From positions 1-55,166 of IMG/VR virus record IMGVR_UViG_3300021197_000131: 55,166 nt of DNA; one strand, 5' to 3'. Below the pieces are notes generated by a model. The model did no database searches. It saw nothing but the letters and a program-made list of their open reading frames with translations, and was not told the DNA's origin. Positions 8,681-21,983 of this stretch are shown here, piece by piece. The stretch is from a virus. Taxonomy: Duplodnaviria; Caudoviricetes. Both the position numbers and the translations under genes were made by a program. Position 1 is the stretch's first letter. Every line of letters begins with the position of its first letter.

Positions 8681-8911
8681 TCATGCTACCACAAAGTCTA
8701 CTAGCAACCCCTCTGGCTGCTTATTTTTATGATGTGGGTGGTAAGCATAAGGAACTTCGTGTCTATACAAGTATGCTTTCTTGTCTACAGCCTTATGTGT
8801 TTCCTCTACCCTTGTCTCTTTCTCACTCTTCCCACTTTCAAACACGATATTCTTGTGTGTATCAAATGGCATATAAGGCAACGGAAAGTGTGCTAACAGT
8901 GTTGCCTTCAT
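8681..8911 (-). CDS. Hypothetical protein
   Basis: Likely start ATG 8911 (MKATLLAHFPLP) just after the upstream stop. Confidence 0.55.
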   Translation of the reverse strand: MKATLLAHFPLPYMPFDTHKNIVFESGKSEKETRVEETHKAVDKKAYLYRHEVPYAYHPHHKNKQPEGLLVDFVVA

Positions 8912-8915
8912 AATA

Positions 8916-9200
8916 TCACCAAGCCTTACAAGACCAGTACCTTGCTGTGAACTTATCTGTCGCTGTATCACAGTTGTGCCTTGCTCTGAAGGATTTGCGC
9001 CTACTAGGTTGATCTTTCTTGATAGACATATTAGGATCACCGAAGCGTACAACCTTTACTTGGTCGCCCTTCTTAGCTAACACAGCAGACTTCTTAGCAC
9101 CACCCGGTGTCTTCTTAGGTTTGTTGTATCCGGGGTAAGTCTCTCCACGATACTTCAGCTTACCGCTAGGAAGACGTTCTACATCTTTAGTTGTTGCCAT
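8916..9200 (-). CDS. Small basic protein (VRFGDP...SFRARHNC...YWSCKAW family)
   Basis: 94-aa ORF with a motif pattern I recognise from phages and large DNA viruses. Confidence 0.75.
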   Translation of the reverse strand: MATTKDVERLPSGKLKYRGETYPGYNKPKKTPGGAKKSAVLAKKGDQVKVVRFGDPNMSIKKDQPSRRKSFRARHNCDTATDKFTARYWSCKAW

Positions 9201-9467
9201 CTATCCAATACCTTCACGCTCTCTGTCAGGGTCTAACACGTCTTTACGCTCTATCCAACCCTCTAAGTACATAGCTCTCTCTACGTGGTCTAGAGTGTAA
9301 CGCACTCCTGTGTCACTCTCTATTGCTGCACGTACATAGAATACGTCAGACTTAGGAATGTGTATACGTCTTAGAGCTTTACTGTCTTCTGATACTAAGG
9401 CAGAGTAAAACTCTTCTATTACGTTATCTGATGCATATAGTTTTACTTGTCTTTTCTTCAAAGTCAA
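9201..9467 (-). CDS. Hypothetical protein, first gene of the packaging operon (TTG start)
   Basis: 88-aa ORF abutting the next gene; no in-frame ATG near the 5' end. Confidence 0.65.
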   Translation of the reverse strand: MTLKKRQVKLYASDNVIEEFYSALVSEDSKALRRIHIPKSDVFYVRAAIESDTGVRYTLDHVERAMYLEGWIERKDVLDPDREREGIG

Positions 9468-9478
9468 TACCTTATATT

Positions 9479-9601
9479 AAAAAATAAAGGTACGTGTCGC
9501 AAACTTACGTGTGAGAGGAGGAGACATGAGGAAGAGTGACACATATATTCGTGACACGTACCAGTGTAACACTTATTTGTTACGTTTATTATTGTGTTAC
9601 T
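9479..9601 (-). ncRNA. Putative small regulatory RNA with anti-SD loop
   Basis: Downstream of TTGACA-N17-TATACT; stem 1 GTAACAC/GTGTTAC with A-rich loop; about 26-bp stem 2 (9489-9562) with loop CUCUUCCUCAUGUCUCCUCCUC; U-rich tail. Confidence 0.65.
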
Positions 9602-9607
9602 GTAATT

Positions 9608-9636
9608 AGTATACAGATATAAGAAGAGTTTGTCAA
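9608..9636 (-). promoter_or_regulatory. Sigma70-type promoter
   Basis: TTGACA (9636-9631), 17 nt, TATACT (9613-9608). Confidence 0.8.
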
Positions 9637-9766
9637 GGGAATAGTTAAACTTTCTAGTTAAACTCTACCTATGTCCACTATCTTATTTGCAACACTCTTT
9701 ATTTAGTTAAACTATCTTTTATTTATTACTTGATTAAGTTAAAACACTTAAAGTTTAACTATACCC
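9637..9766. repeat. 17-bp inverted repeat enclosing TAGTTAAACT iterons
   Basis: GGGAATAGTTAAACTTT (9637-9653) vs AAAGTTTAACTATACCC (9750-9766), 16/17 match; TAGTTAAACT at 9642, 9655, 9704. Confidence 0.75.
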
Positions 9767-9781
9767 TGCTACTGCTACGCA

Positions 9782-9809
9782 GTTATACACATATATCAGC
9801 CTGTGTCAA
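9782..9809 (-). promoter_or_regulatory. Sigma70-type promoter
   Basis: TTGACA (9809-9804), 16 nt, TATAAC with TG extension. Confidence 0.6.
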
Positions 9810-10064
9810 GCGCTTATTTAGCTAAGTGCGACAATCTGTCACTGTATATACATAAAATAAGCCGTTTCAAAAATCACTTCTGTGTGCTTGTACATATACA
9901 CGTAGCGTATATACCCCCCATGGCGCTCGCCGCCCCACTCTTTTTTGTTGTCGCTGTTGTTTTTCTGCGGTGTTTTACTCTAAGTCATTGTATTTATTGC
10001 ATTTTATAACTGATATATCCTCAATTCAGGCTAAAAAGGTGTTGTAAATATGTCACATTTCAGG

Positions 10065-10163
10065 TTTGTGATCACAAAACCAAAATGGATGCACAAAAAC
10101 ACAGACCGCCTATCCAAATGTGATCACAAAAAAGCATACCCCTATAAAATGTGATCACAAAAC
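10065..10163. repeat. Three copies of palindrome TGTGATCACA
   Basis: At 10067, 10119 and 10150, each followed by an A-tract; degenerate copy TGGATGCACA at 10086. Confidence 0.85.
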
Positions 10164-10230
10164 GCTGCAGCATTCCGTCATTCATTATAAATATAAAAAT
10201 ATAAATGTTACATTATAACAAACCAACCAA

Positions 10231-10313
10231 GAGCAAACCCAAAACAGAACAAACCATAAACGAATTACCAACACCAAACAAAACCACGGAACAAAGTAGA
10301 ACAAAAGGCGAAC
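10231..10313. promoter_or_regulatory. Alphaproteobacterial LexA-like boxes
   Basis: GAAC-N6-GAAC-N7-GAAC at 10289-10313; degenerate GAAC-N7-AAAC at 10247-10261 and GAGC-N7-AAAC at 10231-10245. Confidence 0.55.
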
Positions 10314-10451
10314 CCGGTTTTGATTCACTAAATAAAACGCTTTGTTTTCAATGACTTATAAAATAGTTCATTTTAGGGCTTGAACGGTTTTTAAATATCT
10401 GGTCTAAATTGTCTCAAGCAAAACGAAACACAAACCAAAGAGGATCACAAA

Positions 10452-10589
10452 ATGACAAAGGTAGATAGAATAGAACTAGATGAACGGATCAAGGCGCTAG
10501 ATTATTGGGGCAGACTGACATGCGAAAAAATGCTAGAACTAAGAGTAAAAACTAAAAAAGAATTATTGGCAGAACTAAGAGCAAAATAA
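10452..10589 (+). CDS. First early gene, 45-aa hypothetical (not in ORF track)
   Basis: SD GAGGA then MTKVDRIELDERIKALDYWGRLTCEKMLELRVKTKKELLAELRAK. Confidence 0.6.
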   Translation: MTKVDRIELDERIKALDYWGRLTCEKMLELRVKTKKELLAELRAK

Positions 10590-10592
10590 TCC

Positions 10593-10631
10593 TTGACAGT
10601 CTTTTTTGTATCCCTCATGCTAGGGGTACAA
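10593..10631 (+). promoter_or_regulatory. Early promoter with -10 inside a palindrome
   Basis: TTGACA-N17-CATGCT; TTGTATCCCT/AGGGGTACAA arms flank the -10. Confidence 0.55.
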
Positions 10632-10772
10632 GATGGAAAGTCAAATCAGCAAGCCGAGCCTAGAGCCATGACGTTTGCCTTGACCTATACAAGCTCTGCA
10701 GGTGTAAGCTAGTCCTGCATTGGTAAAAAGAAAAGACTTGACTACAAGACGAAAATAAACAAGACTGAATAC

Positions 10773-11000
10773 ACATTGTGGATTTTCCCCATGGCTGGGA
10801 ATGCAACGAAAGAGCGTCTAAAGAAAAGCGCCACGTACAGCCTACGGAATATTAGTTGATCCTCTTAGCGCCGTTGTGGGCTTTGTACATTGTAGAGCCG
10901 TATTGATAGTCGTGCCGTAGCGGGAAAGTCTAGGCTGTGCAAATCAGGTAGCAGAGAGAGACACAGAGAAAGCTTTCCCTAGACGTTGTATTTCTTGGAC
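10773..11000 (+). ncRNA. Putative structured RNA in the early region
   Basis: No tracked ORF, relatively GC-rich, follows TTGACT-N17-AAGACT (10738-10766); several complementary segments. Confidence 0.4.
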
Positions 11001-11098
11001 GCATCTAGTCTAACAGTTCAAAGCTGCATATACTTGACATATGGGATAAATTATAATTAGATGCGTCTTACTAAATACAGTTTCAAAAGAGGTGAGAC

Positions 11099-11314
11099 AT
11101 GGATAACAATACACAAAGCGAAACCTTTTGGATTGTCAGAAAATGGTTTGAAGATGATAGTGACATCCAAGATGTAAATGACTATGAAAAGCATTGGTCT
11201 TTTGCATCTGCTGAATGTGCCTTGTCAGAAGAGAGTCACAATGGCTATGATAAAGGCTTGACAGGTAAAATATTTGAAGTTAAAGCAACCTATGCTTTGA
11301 AAGGTATAGAATAA
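11099..11314 (+). CDS. Early hypothetical protein
   Basis: 71 aa, SD GAGGTGA. Confidence 0.7.
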   Translation: MDNNTQSETFWIVRKWFEDDSDIQDVNDYEKHWSFASAECALSEESHNGYDKGLTGKIFEVKATYALKGIE

Positions 11315-11478
11315 TGACACTGTACACGCTACCACACAAGTTTACTGTGCATAAAGAACGACACGGAAACGGTGGAAATTTTATCTTAAAATGCAATGGT
11401 AATTTTGTCTATTGGGCAGAAACATTGGATGAGATATTTATTGCTTATGGTAATCATCTGAAACATGCAAGAGGATAA
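11314..11478 (+). CDS. Early hypothetical protein (54 aa, not in track)
   Basis: TAATG coupling; MTLYTLPHKFTVHKERHGNGG... Confidence 0.6.
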   Translation: MTLYTLPHKFTVHKERHGNGGNFILKCNGNFVYWAETLDEIFIAYGNHLKHARG

Positions 11479-11481
11479 GAC

Positions 11482-12069
11482 ATGACACAGTACACTAGAA
11501 ACATCTTGAAAGTTTTCAATCAGGCTACGCAGTCAGAGATTGATCACGGTTTGACATGGTACGCTGACGCTAAGAGCAAGGCACAAGAAATGGCTGACTA
11601 TCTAGAATTGCCTTTGCATATTGTAGTCGGCGTTATCGCTGCGCTTAGTCCTACTAATAAATGGGAACGCAATTTAAAAGATGCATATGATATGCTGCAT
11701 ACTTTTACTGCAGGTGGATACGTCGAAGACTGCAGGCCGTGTACATACAAAACCATGCGTGACAAGGCTTGGTCTATCTTGACTAGTATGCCACACAATA
11801 ATGATGATACTGCATTCATCTTGAACGGTGCTAAGATCACGGACTTTTTCTACTGCATCATGGGCGAGGATGTGTGTGTCATTGATGGACATGCTTGGTG
11901 CATTGCTAACAATGATCGCCGCACAATGCAGGAAGTGCCGAACATTGGCAAAAAACTAAGACAAGATTTACAGACCTGTTATAGTCGAGCAGGTAAAAAA
12001 CACGGCATGACCGCATACGAAATGCAAGCCGCTACATGGGTGACATGGAAGCGCATTCATAACGTATAA
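11482..12069 (+). CDS. Conserved phage early protein, possibly HhH DNA-glycosylase-like fold
   Basis: TWY...IAALSP.NKWERN...K...F...VIDGHA...QAATW pattern; fold guess from recollection. Confidence 0.55.
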   Translation: MTQYTRNILKVFNQATQSEIDHGLTWYADAKSKAQEMADYLELPLHIVVGVIAALSPTNKWERNLKDAYDMLHTFTAGGYVEDCRPCTYKTMRDKAWSILTSMPHNNDDTAFILNGAKITDFFYCIMGEDVCVIDGHAWCIANNDRRTMQEVPNIGKKLRQDLQTCYSRAGKKHGMTAYEMQAATWVTWKRIHNV

Positions 12070-15595: not shown

Positions 15596-15831
15596 CCCCT
15601 ATGATGATGTTACGCATTGGGTTGGTAAGCTACCTAAAGAAGATACTGATAGCGACAAGCGTACTGATGAACGTGATACTAGGCGGCAAGCTAAACCAGA
15701 CATTCTCAGCGAGGAATTGGGAGTGGAAAAGAAACGGTAAGCCTAATATCAGTTGGCTTATAGATAAGATACTAGGTAAGGATCACTGCAGTAGGTGTTG
15801 GTCTTACTGGAAAACAAGGAGACAATGGTAA
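15592..15831 (+). CDS. Conserved small phage membrane-associated protein
   Basis: NVILGG..NQTFSAR...LIDKI...DHC pattern. Confidence 0.65.
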   Translation: MTPMMMLRIGLVSYLKKILIATSVLMNVILGGKLNQTFSARNWEWKRNGKPNISWLIDKILGKDHCSRCWSYWKTRRQW

Positions 15832-15832
15832 C

Positions 15833-16750
15833 ATGAACATCCCCAAGAAAAATGCTAGGCTACAAGTTGTTGTAGACTTTTATCTGAACTCAAGAAAGTT
15901 TGCTAAGCTGAGTGGTACAACTCAGAAAGACTATGAGTATCAGCTAGGTGTCGTATGCAATACAGTAGTGGAAGGTAAACGTCTTGGGGATTACACATTA
16001 AAAAGTATAAAGGTGCGTCACCTGACACAGGCATATGAGACATGGACTGAGACAGGTATACGTTCAGCTAATTATCGCCGGGATGTTCTTTCTGCTGCGT
16101 GGAAAAATGCAATGCGCTATGACGTTATGTCACACAATCCTGTTAGTTTAATAAAAGCAGAGGCATCAAAGGATCGCAGAGTATTCTGGACACGTGATCA
16201 GATTTCTACTTTTCTTTCAACGGCTTACAGTAATTACAGTTGGCGCAGCATAGGTCTGATCTTACACATGGCATACGATTGGGGTCAGCGCTTAGGTGAT
16301 ATGCGTCTGCTTACATGGGATGCACTAGACTTAGATGGGTGTCGCCTTGACATCACACAAAGTAAACGTAATGCAGAAGTACACTTGCCAATCGCATCTG
16401 ATTTGTGTAAGATGCTGCAACAACAGAAGGAAGACTTTGGGTTTCAAGATTATGTAGCGCCAAGAGTTAAGCCAAGGGCAGGTGCATACACACCATACAA
16501 CAAAGAAGAAATATCGCCACTTATCAATGAGGTACTAGAAGAAGCTAATCTACCACATGAACTTACTGGCATGGACTTGAGGCGTACTGCTGTGACTGAG
16601 ATGATGGAAGGTGGTGCAAACATGACAGAGATTATGCAGGTGACAGGCCATAAGAATATGGCATCACTGCGTCCTTACATGGTGAACACATTGAGTGGTG
16701 CATCAAAGGCTCTAGCAACCAGAGGTAATAATGAGGATGAACATTCGTGA
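15833..16750 (+). CDS. int: Tyrosine integrase/recombinase
   Basis: Catalytic set GQRLGD (R), QSKR (K), DLRRT, TGH, C-terminal Y. Confidence 0.9.
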   Translation: MNIPKKNARLQVVVDFYLNSRKFAKLSGTTQKDYEYQLGVVCNTVVEGKRLGDYTLKSIKVRHLTQAYETWTETGIRSANYRRDVLSAAWKNAMRYDVMSHNPVSLIKAEASKDRRVFWTRDQISTFLSTAYSNYSWRSIGLILHMAYDWGQRLGDMRLLTWDALDLDGCRLDITQSKRNAEVHLPIASDLCKMLQQQKEDFGFQDYVAPRVKPRAGAYTPYNKEEISPLINEVLEEANLPHELTGMDLRRTAVTEMMEGGANMTEIMQVTGHKNMASLRPYMVNTLSGASKALATRGNNEDEHS

Positions 16751-17516
16751 ATACGTAGATGGCTTAGGCTTGCGTGATGGCGAAAGCTATAGAGGCAACT
16801 GCCCTGAGTGCCGTGGTAAGAATACCTTCACTGCATACAACGACTATGGTACACTCAAGTACAACTGCTTCAAGCTGATGTGCAAGGTGGGTGGGCTATA
16901 CAACACAGACATGACAGCAGCAGAGATAATGATGCGGCTATCACCTAGACAGGAAGAGCCTGAGAAAGAAGTAGAGACTATGGAAATACCTGCCTACATG
17001 GTACAACCTAACACAGAACACCCAGAGTTTCACAGATTTGTTAAGCGTTGGGGTTTACCTACGGATGATCTTATGTATGACCTAGTGCAGCAGCGTGTAG
17101 TGTTTCCTATACGACACAAGGGGCGTATCATTGATGCTGTAGGTAGAGCAGTGGGTGTAAAGAAACAACCTAAGTGGTATCGCTACACAGGTAAGGCAGG
17201 ATACTACACCAGTGGTACAGGTAGCACTGCTCTTATAGTAGAGGATGTAGTGTCAGCTATTGTAGCAGCGCAGGAAGTACCTGACATCACAGGTATAGCT
17301 ATTCTAGGTACATCACTTACACCTAAGCACATGGAGAAAATATCTGAGTATGATAATATAATTATTGCACTTGATCCAGACGCAGTATATAAGACCATAG
17401 AGTATCGCAGAGAGATAGAGTTATGGACAGGAACAAAGACCATAGCTATGAATGTGTCTGATGATATTAAGTATCGCAGACCAGAGGATATAACTAAATT
17501 GAAAGGCTTGGTATGA
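16731..17516 (+). CDS. DNA primase
   Basis: Zn ribbon CPEC...C...C; TOPRIM VEDVVSA, LGT, LDPDA. Confidence 0.88.
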   Translation: MRMNIREYVDGLGLRDGESYRGNCPECRGKNTFTAYNDYGTLKYNCFKLMCKVGGLYNTDMTAAEIMMRLSPRQEEPEKEVETMEIPAYMVQPNTEHPEFHRFVKRWGLPTDDLMYDLVQQRVVFPIRHKGRIIDAVGRAVGVKKQPKWYRYTGKAGYYTSGTGSTALIVEDVVSAIVAAQEVPDITGIAILGTSLTPKHMEKISEYDNIIIALDPDAVYKTIEYRREIELWTGTKTIAMNVSDDIKYRRPEDITKLKGLV

Positions 17517-18256
17517 TTACAGTAACACATATAGACCACATGGGCAGTGATCTGTCTGTCGTTAATGCAGCTAGGGTATCCTTTGGTAAGAAGGCTGATT
17601 GGAAACACCCCTCTATTGGTCAGGAGTCTGGCCTGTCTGATCGTGACACCAAGCTAGTGTACTACCTAGCAAAGCACAAACATATGTCACCCTTTGGTCA
17701 TGCCTTTGCTACCTTCCATGTCAAAGCACCTGTGTTTGTGGCACGTCAGCTAGTCAAGCATAAGTTCTTACGTTGGAATGAGATTAGCCGTAGGTATGTG
17801 GACAGTGAACCTGAGTTCTATCTACCTGACGTATGGCGTGGACGCAGTGAAGACAAGAAGCAGGGCAGTGAAGGTGAGGTGAAGATTGAAGACTATAAGA
17901 TTGAACTAGCCTTTTCAAAACCAAACACAGGTAAAGCTGTAGCAGCCTCTAAAGAGCCACCTCATCAATGGAATACATACGATCAGATAGAGGACGATTA
18001 CGCAGGGTTAATGGTTTTATATACAGGTCTTCTTGACATGGGCGTCTGCCCAGAGCAAGCACGTATGGTGTTGCCCCAAAGCACCATGACTGAGTGGTAC
18101 TGGTCAGGGTCACTAGATGCCTTCTCTGATATGTGCCTACTGCGTTGTGCCAGTGACACTCAAGCTGAGACACAAGAGGTAGCTAATCAAATCAGCCTCA
18201 AGATGCATGAGTTATTTCCTGTGTCGTGGATGGCACTTGGTACAGGGAGACATTAA
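17513..18256 (+). CDS. thyX: FAD-dependent thymidylate synthase
   Basis: VVNAARVSF, HMSPF, RQLVKH...NEISRRY, EQARMVLP. Confidence 0.95.
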   Translation: MITVTHIDHMGSDLSVVNAARVSFGKKADWKHPSIGQESGLSDRDTKLVYYLAKHKHMSPFGHAFATFHVKAPVFVARQLVKHKFLRWNEISRRYVDSEPEFYLPDVWRGRSEDKKQGSEGEVKIEDYKIELAFSKPNTGKAVAASKEPPHQWNTYDQIEDDYAGLMVLYTGLLDMGVCPEQARMVLPQSTMTEWYWSGSLDAFSDMCLLRCASDTQAETQEVANQISLKMHELFPVSWMALGTGRH

Positions 18257-18463: not shown

Positions 18464-18736
18464 ATGTTTACTGTTGAGTTTGAACCAGACGCATCTATAA
18501 TATGTAGCCTTGATGAAACCGGGAAGCATGAGGACGTTGAAGTTATCATAGGTGATGATGCTGTGGTATATATACGTCAGTGGGATACAGATTTTGAGGC
18601 ATATCAAATGTTGATCTTGACATACCAACAGCTACTGGATATAACTGCATCCCTTAGTACACCAGAGGGTATGCACAGACTAATGAGAGGAAGACAATAT
18701 GATGGAACTGGCCTTGGTCAAAACTCTACTAAGTAG
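18464..18736 (+). CDS. Hypothetical protein
   Basis: 90-aa ORF in the operon. Confidence 0.7.
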   Translation: MFTVEFEPDASIICSLDETGKHEDVEVIIGDDAVVYIRQWDTDFEAYQMLILTYQQLLDITASLSTPEGMHRLMRGRQYDGTGLGQNSTK

Positions 18737-19925
18737 AGACTTCTATGATCAACACAAAGGTATACGGTGTCCCGACAAGATATTCACTAAGGATGTCCGT
18801 AAGATAAAGCAAGCACTAGACGCAGCTATGGAAGCATATGATGGAGACTTGTCTGCAGATGATTTACAGGCAGTGTTCAACCGTATGAACCAGAGCATGA
18901 CAACAGCCACACGTACAGCATACGACGATTTATTCAGACGTATCAGTAACGCACAACCAATCAAGGACGAGATAGCAGAGGACACATTGTCTCAGTTGTT
19001 TCAGCAACACGTAGGTGATCGTGTAGCTAACCTTGGCTTTGACTTTGTGAACGGTACAGAGAATAGTCTTGAGCCGCTACGTAGATTACTAGAGGATTAC
19101 AAAGATGACTTTACTCCTAATCTCCGTGTTGAGTGGGATGACATTAGCATTGACACACTACTTACTGCCAACGATCTTGAAACCCAATGGAAGTTTAACA
19201 TTCCAAGTCTCCGTAGGAAGGTGGAAGGCGTTAGCGGTGGTCATCTGTTGTTGGTCGGCGCTCGTCCCAATACTGGTAAGACTTCTTTTCACGCATCCCT
19301 TATAGCAGGGGCAGGTGGTTGGGCATCTCAAGGTGCTAAGTGTATTGTGTTGTGTAATGAAGAGAGTTATGAACGTGTAGGCTCACGCTACCTAAGTGCT
19401 GCATGTAACATGAACATGGATGAGGTGCGTCAGAATGTCGCATTAGCACGTAGTAGATATGAACCTGTGCGTAAGAACATACGTATCAAGGATAGCACTA
19501 ACAAAGATATGCAATGGGTTGAGGCTATTGTTAAGAATGAGAAGCCTGACATTGTAGTGCTAGACATGGGCGATAAGTTTGCTACAAAGAACACAGACAA
19601 GTCAGACATATATCTCAAGGATGCTGCAATACACGCACGTAACATTGCAAAACAGTATGATTGTTGTGTGATCTGGATGTCACAGTTATCTGCTGTAGCA
19701 GAAGGTAAGGTGTTTGTTGATCAGTCTATGATGGAAGGAAGTAAGACAGGCAAGGCAGCAGAGGCAGACCTAATGGTGTTAATATCTAAGAACCCTATGG
19801 TAGAAGGTGCAGAGGAAGGAGACACACAACGGCACTTGAACATAGCAAAGAATAAACTAAAGGGTGGATACCATGGGGTCATTCACTGTGAGTTGGACGG
19901 TGGTAGATCACTATACACTGCATAG
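18699..19925 (+). CDS. DnaB-like (SF4) replicative helicase
   Basis: Walker A GARPNTGKT, VVLD, MSQL, EADL, IAKNK. Confidence 0.92.
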   Translation: MMELALVKTLLSRDFYDQHKGIRCPDKIFTKDVRKIKQALDAAMEAYDGDLSADDLQAVFNRMNQSMTTATRTAYDDLFRRISNAQPIKDEIAEDTLSQLFQQHVGDRVANLGFDFVNGTENSLEPLRRLLEDYKDDFTPNLRVEWDDISIDTLLTANDLETQWKFNIPSLRRKVEGVSGGHLLLVGARPNTGKTSFHASLIAGAGGWASQGAKCIVLCNEESYERVGSRYLSAACNMNMDEVRQNVALARSRYEPVRKNIRIKDSTNKDMQWVEAIVKNEKPDIVVLDMGDKFATKNTDKSDIYLKDAAIHARNIAKQYDCCVIWMSQLSAVAEGKVFVDQSMMEGSKTGKAAEADLMVLISKNPMVEGAEEGDTQRHLNIAKNKLKGGYHGVIHCELDGGRSLYTA

Positions 19926-19934
19926 GACGTAGAC

Positions 19935-21983
19935 ATGAGACTTGTATTAGATGTTGAGAACAGCGTCACATGGCGTGATGGTAAGATACACAACGATCCC
20001 TTTGAACCTAACAATACTCTTACACAGGTGGGGATTGTCAATGCAGATAACAAAGAAGAGTTACATATTGTAACACTTGATCATGTAGAACATAAGGATG
20101 TGTCTGGCTCTGGTAGAAAACTTATTCAAGACATCCTTGACATGACTACCCTTTTGATTATGCACAATGCTAAGCATGATCTGATGTGGCTGTGGGAGTG
20201 CGGCTTTAAATATGAAGGAGCTATATATGACACTATGTTAGCAGAGTACATACTGGCAAGAGGACAGAAGATACCTGTCAGCTTATCGGCTTGTGCTATC
20301 CGTAGAAACTTAGCAGAGCAGAAAGAGGACTACTTATCTGCCTGTCTAAAGAAAGGGATAAACACAAATGAAACCAATCTATCTCAGCTTAGCCTTTATC
20401 TTAGGCATGATCTGCTCACAACTTGTGAGTTGTTCCACAGTATCGAATCAGACTATTCCAAACCAGAATCAGAGTCCCTTGCTGCCGTCAAACGTGTCAC
20501 CTTCGACACATGCAGAACCCTCACAGAGTTGTACATGCAAGGAGTCAAGGTTGATCTTTCGGAGCTTGGGCGAGTAAAGGAAGAGTTTGAAAGAGAGAAA
20601 GCAGACATAGAAGACAGACTACAAAAGAAGATACGTGGGCTTATGGGTGACACACCTATCAATGCTAACTCACCAGAGCAGATGTCTCAGGTAGTTTTCA
20701 GTAGACGTATACACAACAAGAAGGAGTGGGCAGACCTATTTAATTTTACTGAAACACCTGCAGAGTTCAAGGCTGCTGTGAAAGCAAACAGTTCTACTAT
20801 CTACAAGACAAAGGCGTTTACCTGCCCTGTCTGTAATGGGCAAGGAAAAACGTATAAAGTAAGGAAGGATGGAACAAAGTATGCAAGACCCAATAAATGT
20901 AAGGCGTGTGACGCAAGAGGCTACCAACTAAAGGAGACTAATCAAGTAGCAGGTCTGCGTTTTTCTGCCCCTAGCAAGAAGTGGACAAGCAACCATGGGT
21001 TCAGCACAGGAAAGAGTAACTTAGATGTACTCATGGCTACTGCAAAGAACAACAACATGCAGGATGCCGCAGACTTTCTGGCTGACCTAAAGCGTTTGTC
21101 TGCTGTCAGCAGTTACCTGTCTTCGTTTGTTGAGGGTATTGCTACTAACACCAAGGAAGATGGTAGGCTTCACGTACAGCTTACGCAACACATCACTGCA
21201 ACAGGAAGGTTTAGTGGTAAGCAACCCAACATGCAGAACATGCCAAGAGGTAACACATTCCCTGTTAAGAAAGTATTTGTGTCTCGTTGGGATGGCGGCT
21301 ACATATGCGAGGCTGACTTTGCTCAGCTTGAGTTTCGTACCGCAGCATTCTTAGCACAGGACAAGGTTGCTATGGAAGAGATTGATACAGGGTTTGATGT
21401 ACACAGCTACACTGCCAAGGTTATCAGTGATGCAGGGCAACCTACGTCACGTCAAGATGCCAAAGCTCATACCTTCGCACCTCTCTTTGGTGCTACTGGA
21501 TACGGTAGGTCTAAGGCTGAGCAATCGTACTACACACACTTCATTGAAAAGTATAAAGGTGTAGCAGCGTGGCACAAGGACTTAGGCAACCAAGCACTAC
21601 GTCTAAACAAGATCACCAGTAAGTCAGGTAGGCAGTATGCTTTCCCTGATGTAACACGAAGAGCAAACGGATCACCGTCACACTTCACTATGATCAAGAA
21701 CTATCCAGTGCAGGGCTTTGCTACTGGTGATGTTGTCCCGGTTGTTCTAAATGAAATGCACAAACGCCTAGAGAATATGCACTCATGTTTGGTAAACACA
21801 GTACATGATTCAACCGTGATTGATGTGCATCCAGAAGAGAAAGATCAGGTACTACAAATCGTACAAGACTTAAACGATAATCTAGTTGAGTTGATAGAGG
21901 AAGCCTATAACATTACTATGAATGTACCTCTATTATTAGAGGCTAAGATAGGCCCGAATTGGCTTGACACGGTGGACGTTTAG
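19935..21983 (+). CDS. polA: Family A DNA polymerase with 3'-5' exonuclease and DnaJ-type Zn-finger insert
   Basis: Exo LDVE and HNAKHD; TGRFS; motif A DFAQLE; motif B RQDAKAHTFAPLFG; motif C VHDS; CPVCNGQG...CKACDARG. Confidence 0.95.
   Translation: MRLVLDVENSVTWRDGKIHNDPFEPNNTLTQVGIVNADNKEELHIVTLDHVEHKDVSGSGRKLIQDILDMTTLLIMHNAKHDLMWLWECGFKYEGAIYDTMLAEYILARGQKIPVSLSACAIRRNLAEQKEDYLSACLKKGINTNETNLSQLSLYLRHDLLTTCELFHSIESDYSKPESESLAAVKRVTFDTCRTLTELYMQGVKVDLSELGRVKEEFEREKADIEDRLQKKIRGLMGDTPINANSPEQMSQVVFSRRIHNKKEWADLFNFTETPAEFKAAVKANSSTIYKTKAFTCPVCNGQGKTYKVRKDGTKYARPNKCKACDARGYQLKETNQVAGLRFSAPSKKWTSNHGFSTGKSNLDVLMATAKNNNMQDAADFLADLKRLSAVSSYLSSFVEGIATNTKEDGRLHVQLTQHITATGRFSGKQPNMQNMPRGNTFPVKKVFVSRWDGGYICEADFAQLEFRTAAFLAQDKVAMEEIDTGFDVHSYTAKVISDAGQPTSRQDAKAHTFAPLFGATGYGRSKAEQSYYTHFIEKYKGVAAWHKDLGNQALRLNKITSKSGRQYAFPDVTRRANGSPSHFTMIKNYPVQGFATGDVVPVVLNEMHKRLENMHSCLVNTVHDSTVIDVHPEEKDQVLQIVQDLNDNLVELIEEAYNITMNVPLLLEAKIGPNWLDTVDV

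Follow-up and report, generated by a model that had tools for sequence, protein, structure and literature searches.

The 55,166-nucleotide (nt) stretch analysed here, IMG/VR record IMGVR_UViG_3300021197_000131 (the window), is a complete genome by CheckV estimate and belongs to an HMO-2011-type roseophage whose closest named records are CRP-207, CRP-2 and CRP-603. Its plus-strand genes between 10452 and 28529 form the early/replication block, with genes for integrase, primase, ThyX, DnaB-like helicase, PolA, endonuclease I, MazG, ribonucleotide reductase, endonuclease VII and PhoH. The minus-strand late block begins with a gene for a protein of 86/88 amino acids, followed by small genes and then by those for the large terminase subunit, portal and tail fibres. 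At the head of this late operon, within a 1-kb regulatory region, lies the element considered here, a promoter followed by two hairpins and a U tail on the minus strand at 9479-9636. On comparative evidence, the element is a structured minus-strand RNA conserved among relatives, and its second loop varies in step with the start regions of the phage's helicase and polA genes. It is probably an antisense RNA that derives from the leader and acts in trans to control replication genes of the same phage.

The element and its conservation

The unit starts with promoter P1 (9608-9636, minus strand), in which TTGACA (9636-9631) and TATACT (9613-9608) are separated by 17 nt and match the consensus at 11 of 12 positions, confirming the near-consensus promoter that an earlier note on this DNA had placed before a minus-strand unit. 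P1 is the top scorer among seven promoter-like sites within 8800-10800; because the same region yields 5.3 ± 2.5 such sites when shuffled, the match alone is weak evidence. Support for P1, as for the second promoter P0 described below, comes from consensus match together with conservation, and the start sites are predicted from sequence. Stem-loop 1 (9566-9600, minus strand) folds into a stem of 7 base pairs (bp; 9600-9594 with 9572-9566) closed by an A-rich 21-nt loop. Stem-loop 2 (9489-9562, minus strand) has an imperfect stem of 22 bp, in runs of 10, 5 and 7, that presents a C/U-rich 26-nt loop at 9513-9538. Read on the minus strand (9538-9513), this loop is CACUCUUCCUCAUGUCUCCUCCUCUC, nearly all C and U. 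Directly 3' of stem 2 follows the U tail UUUAUUUUUU (9479-9488, minus strand), which together with the stem forms an intrinsic-terminator-like end.

The minus-strand fold of 9470-9605 has an energy of -34.8 kcal/mol (z = -5.06), a value equalled by none of 200 shuffles, and loop 2 is unpaired with a mean probability of 0.98. The fold bears out the stem 1 with A-rich loop and the U tail of the earlier note. Its long second hairpin is also there, but with a stem of 22 bp where the note had about 26 bp, and with the note's 22-nt loop sequence contained in a full loop of 26 nt.

IMG/VR lists 527 relatives of the 86-amino-acid protein encoded by the first late gene, of which the best 80 loci were taken. 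A covariance model built on 18 sequences was run on 84 sources, the window and 83 loci, and finds exactly one match each in 72 of them (E ≤ 1e-5). Of the 12 sources without a match at this threshold, CRP-2, CRP-603, L013 and L020 give weak matches (E 0.0013-0.018) in which the same design is visible. In seven others the hairpin is a shorter variant whose CUUUCCUUUC loop has 10 nt, in a leader that holds three CCCUCCUU-like tracts, and one has no upstream sequence. The element is single-copy in all four related full-length records. It is absent from HMO-2011 and, by eye, also from CRP-1, CRP-9 and MW202701. When helicase loci were scanned with the model, the RNA was present in six of 36; seven that extend 8.6-10 kb upstream (L155, L169, L173, L182, L190, L196 and L219) gave no match, and in L155 the RNA sits at the opposite contig end.

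The stems are maintained through sequence change. In an alignment of 42 distinct sequences, which is fitted to the model and therefore favours the structure, 95.9% of the stem pair cells are standard, compared with 13.6-61.3% when the partners are slid. Compensatory changes are found in 11 of 23 pairs, namely three of the seven in stem 1 (where 99.7% of cells are paired) and eight of the 16 in stem 2, and the covariation score is reached by none of 500 shuffles. Stem covariation in relatives, which the earlier note had proposed as a check, is thus present. The pair cells comprise 817 Watson-Crick, 100 G-U, five A-C and 34 other combinations. The 100 G-U against five A-C cells indicate selection on the minus-strand RNA rather than on the DNA duplex or the other strand. 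Loop 1 remains rich in A (56%) and U (28%).

A search of Rfam, also proposed earlier, matched no family. At E ≤ 10, cmscan of 8800-10800 returned only four chance-level matches, none over the two hairpins and the nearest (9395-9455) inside the downstream gene, and the whole window gave no match at gathering score. The element would be a new RNA family, supported by covariation within the RNA and, as described below, between the RNA and its targets.

The element is flanked by conserved expression signals. Promoter, tail and loop counts are based on 54 distinct sequences from the upstream regions of relatives. In these, the promoter-like site that scores best 5' of stem 1 has the -10 box TAnACT in 46 and a 17-nt spacer in 47; its -35 box is TTGACA in 27 and TTGTAA, TTGTAT or TTGTGT in 21. 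The tail holds at least five U among its first 8 nt in 35 of the 54 and a U run of at least four in 39. A second promoter, P0 (9782-9809, minus strand), lies about 175 nt upstream of P1 in the same direction and consists of TTGACA (9809-9804), a 16-nt spacer and TATAAC (9787-9782); a P0-type site, TTGAC(A/T/C)-N16/17-TATAA(C/T), stands at the same relative place in 16 of 16 sequences examined. The leader between the two promoters (9637-9781, minus strand) aligns in conserved blocks, with TAGTTAAACT repeats and a GUGGACAUAGG block. RNAalifold of the RNA from P0 to the terminator finds no larger conserved structure, only the two known hairpins and a 4-bp hairpin at the 5' end.

The next gene's annotated start follows stem 2 by 23-42 nt in relatives; in the window, the first late gene (9201-9467, minus strand), whose product has no assigned function, begins 12-18 nt after the U tail. 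No promoter fits between the element and this gene, so the late mRNA must run through the element. It follows that the terminator leaks and that the element constitutes the operon's 5' leader. The inserted open reading frames (ORFs) of L016 and L017 begin 7-18 nt after the tail, that is, behind the element, so the element always lies in the leader. Of the free-standing small RNA gene envisaged earlier, the conserved promoter of its own stands; the unit is, however, also the 5' leader of the late operon, with P0 as a second promoter upstream.

Loop 2 and the start regions of replication genes

Loop 2 is 22-30 nt long in all 54 distinct sequences, and its composition in the 42 aligned ones is 47% C, 38% U, 9% A and 5.5% G. 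Two C/U tracts are separated by AUG, UUG, GUG, CGU or AAAA. CUCC occurs in every one of the 54 loops, UCCUC in 52, GUCUCC in 43, CCUCC in 28 and CAUG in 23. The earlier note had described the loop as an antisense Shine-Dalgarno (SD) sequence plus start codon. This description fits the window and one subgroup, but with CAUG in 23 and CCUCC in 28 of the 54 loops it is not general, and the antisense start codon accordingly marks a single subgroup rather than the family.

Within the window, the loop pairs with early start regions far better than with late ones. The mean duplex energy is -12.96 kcal/mol over 30 early start regions and -8.06 kcal/mol over 33 late ones (p = 2e-6), and -13 kcal/mol is reached by 15 of the early and none of the late regions. 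Against the same early starts, 500 shuffled loops average -9.76 ± 0.78 kcal/mol, and none matches the observed mean. Complements of loop 8-mers occur at 27 plus-strand and five minus-strand places; nine places fall at the start regions of seven early genes and none at late ones. Against these nine, shuffled complements give 1.03 ± 1.46, and 0 of 300 reach nine. Part of the contrast arises because early genes have strong GGAG-type SD sequences, often GGAGAC, and late genes weak ones (GGAG in 10 of 30 early and three of 33 late start regions). CRP-207 and CRP-2 show this difference between early and late SD sequences less strongly, and HMO-2011 does not show it; the ORF calls behind these comparisons are crude.

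Two of these start regions are the predicted targets. The first belongs to the DnaB-like helicase gene (Pfam DnaB_C; start codon at 18699), where GAGGAAGA would pair with the loop over 18684-18707 (plus strand) at -20.6 kcal/mol. The second is that of polA (19923-19940, plus strand; start codon at 19935), where AGACAUGAG lies opposite CUCAUGUCU of the loop with a predicted duplex energy of -19.1 kcal/mol. The partial matches at phage starts that the earlier note had listed, at 19931-19939 in polA and at 11094-11101 and 11478-11485, are all real.

The link to these two genes extends across phages. We gathered orthologous start regions from further records, locating sites by tblastn from residue 1 or by crude ORF calls, and compared each with the loop of the same phage. 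The longest exact match between helicase start and own loop is at least 8 nt in 24 of 27 records, and the matched sequence is specific to the loop type. In the L049 type the helicase start AGGAGACAAGG faces the loop CCUUGUCUCCU, in CRP-2 and CRP-603 AGAGGAGACAC faces GUGUCUCCUCU, in CRP-207 AGGAGACAU faces AUGUCUCCU, and in the L062 type UAGGAGAGA faces UCUCUCCUA. The same holds where the loop itself departs from the common pattern: the type with GUUUCC in place of GUCUCC (UCGUUUCCUC) has the helicase start GAGGAAACGA, and loops without GUCUCC (UCUCUCCU) have AGGAGAGA. At polA, CUCAUGUCU loops face AGACAUGAG over the start codon, and this match, which the earlier note had named, recurs in the examined records with CAUG-type loops; opposite the GUUUCC loop type stands AGAGAGG(G)AAAC, and opposite loops that lack GUCUCC stands GAGGAGAGAG.

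Permutation among 10 loop types gives the strength of this association. For the helicase, the match sum of 87 compares with a permuted mean of 67.4 and was reached in two of 200,000 permutations (28 of 200,000 when scored by duplex energy). For polA, the sum is 81 against a mean of 64.3, reached in 22 of 200,000 (2717 of 200,000 by duplex energy). The ribonucleotide reductase start served as a control in seven types and shows no link, with a sum of 46 against a mean of 45.0, reached in 2030 of 5040 permutations (537 of 5040 by duplex energy). Since most of these phages also have a good ribosome-binding site at the reductase gene, the effect is gene-specific and not a lineage-wide style of start region. 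Together, these comparisons are good evidence that complementarity of the loop to the helicase and polA starts is kept through compensatory change.

Interpretation and alternative explanations

The element is thus a real conserved RNA for which there is good comparative evidence of a specific function. The best-supported interpretation, and in our judgement the probable one, is an antisense RNA derived from the late leader. In one subclade of HMO-2011-type roseophages, the element serves as the 5' leader of the late (lysis, packaging and structural) operon. Some transcripts probably stop at the terminator formed by hairpin 2 and the U tail, releasing a small RNA with a discrete 3' end, roughly 125 nt long when started at P1 and roughly 300 nt when started at P0, and the remainder would read through to give late mRNA. 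The single-stranded C/U-rich loop of 22-30 nt would then act as an antisense seed, pairing in trans with the SD/start-codon region of the helicase mRNA and of the adjacent polA mRNA, possibly with the help of Hfq or another chaperone. The likeliest effect is a block of ribosome binding; repression rather than activation is expected by analogy with loop-presented anti-SD RNAs. Translation of the replication genes would fall as late-gene transcription rises. The earlier note's proposal of a trans-acting RNA directed at the phage's own early and replication genes is strengthened by the covariation with the helicase and polA starts, and its silencing action remains an inference.

If this reading is correct, the element would be a clear example of a phage controlling its replication at the RNA level through a seed encoded in trans. 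A broader version is possible, although we hold it to be doubtful: the late leader may double as a timer, in which the RNA shuts off helicase and polymerase translation, acts more weakly on other GGAG-type early and host mRNAs, and lets ribosomes pass to late mRNAs with weak SD sequences. Such a timer would be an RNA-only counterpart, within a late transcript, of the T4 RegA/RegB early shut-off.

Several observations weigh against the antisense interpretation. The helicase match is short in L064 and L067 (6 nt) and in L017 (7 nt), and the polA match is less strict, reaching at least 8 nt in only 16 of 26 records. The 10 loop types are related lineages and not independent samples, and the start sites in genomes other than the window are computational. 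When duplex energies are averaged over all early start regions and set out as a matrix, own loops show no advantage. The enrichment of loop-complementary 8-mers in early-strand sequence is significant in only three of six RNA-bearing genomes (the window, CRP-207 and G005) and not in CRP-2, G001 or G003. The tail is U-poor, with fewer than five U in its first 8 nt, in 19 of the 54 relatives; in the L076 group it has no U run at all, only CUUCCUUCCCUU, and without processing this group would have the RNA in leader form alone. RNA-library contigs, 95-99% alike, are available from two libraries of different studies, X1 (9486-9635 and 9637-9787) and X3 (9490-9745). They have a depth of about 2-3 and no strand information, extend upstream of the P1 start site and may derive from DNA carry-over. 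In both libraries they end at the base of hairpin 2 (9486 and 9490), where no loose ends are reported, which gives a weak hint of a real 3' end. No RNA-library contig was placed on 9431-9485 or 9812-10600, a gap that is not readable as absence.

The alternative that survives best is a leader acting purely in cis, although we consider it unlikely as a full account. Hairpin and U tail would form an attenuator without trans function, comparable to lambda PR'-6S-tR', and the pyrimidine loop would serve either as the binding site of a protein, such as Rho, ribosomal protein S1 or an antiterminator of the phage, or as an RNase III site. The position of the element is what such a leader predicts: it is invariably found downstream of conserved sigma-70-like promoters and ahead of the first late gene, inserted ORFs stand behind it and not before it, and the operon that follows holds the large terminase subunit, portal and tail fibres. 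The weak or absent SD sequence of the first gene, the 22-bp length of the stem and a tail that stays pyrimidine-rich even where the U run is lost, as in the L076 group, point the same way. However, a cis role leaves unexplained why the variable middle of the loop tracks helicase and polA starts that lie 9-10 kb away on the other strand. Among 27 early proteins searched against Pfam, none showed a Q/N-like antiterminator or an RNA-binding domain; with no reportable family for 15 of them (14 without a match and one with a single sub-threshold match), this negative is a weak one. The cis and trans roles are compatible and can coexist.

A general anti-SD sponge, or host shut-off, can likewise coexist with a targeted antisense RNA; as the sole function of the loop we regard it as quite unlikely. 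Here any strong GGAG-type site, of the host or of early phage genes, would be a partner for the C/U tracts, and translation would shift to late mRNAs with weak SD sequences. The presence of CUCC in all loops and UCCUC in 52 of 54, the better pairing of early starts in the window, the excess of GGAG at early starts and the three tracts in the leader of the variant group all fit this idea. Against it, the ribonucleotide reductase start has a good SD sequence but does not covary with the loop. Moreover, 26 of the 54 loops lack CCUCC, neither CRP-207 nor CRP-2 shows a significant difference between early and late starts, and the type-specific flanks of the matches (…ACAAGG, …ACAC and GGAAAC) point to particular targets.

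A feature of the DNA itself is very improbable. On this account one DNA-binding protein would recognise, as its operator, the duplex motif that the loop shares with the starts of helicase and polA, or the inverted repeats would be protein sites, an origin or packaging signals. The intergenic region is indeed rich in repeats and palindromes, including three copies of TGTGATCACA and the TAGTTAAACT repeats, the arms of stem 1 resemble repeated GTAACAC/GTGTTAC motifs, and palindromic operators covary too. The preponderance of G-U over A-C cells nevertheless points to selection on one strand, the target motif is the SD/start region itself, and an operator has no need of the long covarying stem that flanks the loop. 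We reject a small plus-strand protein as scarcely credible: the window does have GAGGAGGAGACATG followed by a 27-codon open frame at 9526, which the earlier note had named as a potential explanation of the SD-ATG, but the frame is not conserved, stopping after six codons in the closest relative (L004) and spanning 6 to at least 28 codons with dissimilar peptides among loop-ATG relatives, a purine run plus ATG is missing in 10 of 42 distinct sequences (in the other 32, some of the ATGs caught by the search differ from the loop ATG), and the structure is specific to the minus strand.

The antisense reading has partial precedents. In lambda, the strong sigma-70 promoter PR' is followed by the 6S RNA and its terminator tR', a short terminated leader ahead of an operon for lysis and then packaging. 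The layout of promoter, short terminated leader and late operon is the same here, and in CRP-9 an annotated endolysin stands two genes behind the homologous first gene. The two systems differ in that no Q-like protein was found among the 27 early proteins by Pfam, within the limit given above, and in that the loop covaries with distant genes; we know of no antisense seed in lambda 6S RNA. P22 sar, P1 c4, P4 CI and lambda OOP are small RNAs that pair with ribosome-binding regions or leaders of their own phage and time its life cycle. Those RNAs are cis-encoded or act on their own operon, whereas the targets predicted here lie 9-10 kb off on the other strand and the seed is a short, covarying one in a very large loop. 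CopA and RNA I control plasmid replication proteins through an antisense sequence that is likewise presented in a loop; they are cis-encoded and fully complementary, unlike the trans-encoded seed match of 8-11 nt considered here. In bacteria, the C/U-rich unpaired motifs of AbcR1/2 occlude the ribosome-binding sites of host mRNAs for ABC transporters. The element shares the C/U-rich unpaired motif but differs in architecture and has no Rfam match.

The cuckoo/CcsR RNAs (RSs0680) of Rhodobacterales and Rhizobiales are described, in the part of the report available to us, as two to four adjacent hairpins with CCUCCUCCC in each loop (PMC4615179). On that partial account, they resemble the element in their C/U-rich, anti-SD-like loops, their variable stems with many compensatory changes and their alphaproteobacterial hosts (PMC4615179). 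Here, however, only hairpin 2 has a C/U loop, loop 1 being A-rich (A 56%), the loop is 22-30 nt long, and the window has no exact CCUCCUCCC. The element is also phage-encoded, forms a late-operon leader and has the phage's own genes as predicted targets. Judged by the missing CCUCCUCCC and the lack of an Rfam match, it belongs to neither the cuckoo/CcsR nor the AbcR family, the two that the earlier note had invoked. A phage precedent for base pairing in trans is lambda PreS/LPR1, which, according to the portion of the preprint consulted, enhances translation of host dnaN (bioRxiv 10.1101/2024.10.31.621285). On that evidence, both are trans-acting phage RNAs that bear on replication, but PreS/LPR1 acts on host genes by enhancement, and the element would act on the phage's own genes, with repression expected.

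Full-text literature searches, which did not cover supplements, found no published trans-encoded phage RNA whose seed co-evolves with the helicase and polymerase starts of its own phage. They likewise found no small RNA report for HMO-2011-type phages, none for roseophages that is relevant by its title, and nothing on gene timing in HMO-2011-type phages. The words 'intergenic', 'noncoding' and 'non-coding' do not occur in the text of PMC9038755; the supplements of roseophage papers may annotate the region. HMO-2011-type phages rank with the most abundant marine virus groups known, as stated in the sections consulted of two reports (PMC9038755, PMC6918029). No RNA polymerase was found encoded by these phages.

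Neighbouring sequences

The leader upstream of P1 contains further conserved features. The first transcribed bases after P0 (9760-9783, minus strand) read GCGUAGCAGUAGCAG. In relatives, this repeat varies (GUAGUAGUAGUAG, GGAGCAGGAGCA and GUAGAAGUAGAAG) in concert with a complementary base just upstream, and the resulting 4-bp hairpin shows G-C, A-U and U-A variants. The TAGTTAAACT repeats lie at 9642-9651, 9655-9664 and 9704-9713, with an inverted copy at 9752-9761, and are bracketed by an 18-nt inverted repeat (9636-9653 and 9750-9767) that is 94% complementary. The conserved block GUGGACAUAGG(A/U)AGAG (9664-9679, minus strand) is partly complementary to loop 2. A search for cis pairing of loop 2 found its best site at the conserved upstream block GUGGACAUAGGAAGAG in eight of 13 leaders, at -14.5 to -24.1 kcal/mol. 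We rejected this pairing as a conserved one: where loops differ, the block does not change to compensate, and it is missing in the CRP-207 type. A long-range contact between the conserved block and loop 2 may nonetheless form in the P0 transcript.

Downstream of the element, another TTGACA abuts the start codon of the first late gene (TTGACAATG; 9458-9470, minus strand). It is found in L001, L002, L085, L086 and many other loci, and it is retained even in HMO-2011 and CRP-1, which lack the RNA. As a second promoter it was rejected, there being no acceptable -10 box at 16-18 nt. Codons 6-10 of the same gene are nearly invariant in their nucleotides (TACAACTATATGCA). Its 86/88-amino-acid product matches no PHROG family, and its only Pfam match is sub-threshold (E 0.0048; 17.5 bits, where the cut-off is 23.2). 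The ORFs inserted between the RNA and this gene are one or two paralogues of about 230 amino acids (L016, 670-1380; L017, 112-813 and 815-1486), and L017 has a third copy after the gene.

Some features of the relatives concern their assembly. Contig ends near the element were considered as genome ends and rejected as arbitrary, because G001 and G005 have terminal repeats elsewhere. The L005 contig (positions 1-55) appears to begin with a sequence like a sequencing adapter, fused directly to phage sequence within stem-loop 1, which would make this part of the public record an assembly artefact. In G026 (15668-17586; L133-L135), the gene for ribonucleotide reductase is in three pieces in different frames and is broken or mis-assembled.

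Upstream of P0, at 9875-9945 (minus strand), a conserved G-rich block GGGGCGGCGAGCGCCAUGGGGGG is followed by ACGUGUAUAUGUACAAGCACACAGAAGUG, and both are kept in most relatives examined. The palindrome TGTGATCACA, within TTTGTGATCACAAA, has perfect copies at 10065-10076, 10119-10130 and 10150-10161 and a weaker one at 10437-10452. These copies lie just upstream of the first plus-strand gene and look like operators of the early promoter region. Within the early block, a tyrosine integrase is encoded at 15833-16750 (plus strand; Pfam Phage_integrase, E 2.7e-18), and given this gene the phage may be temperate.

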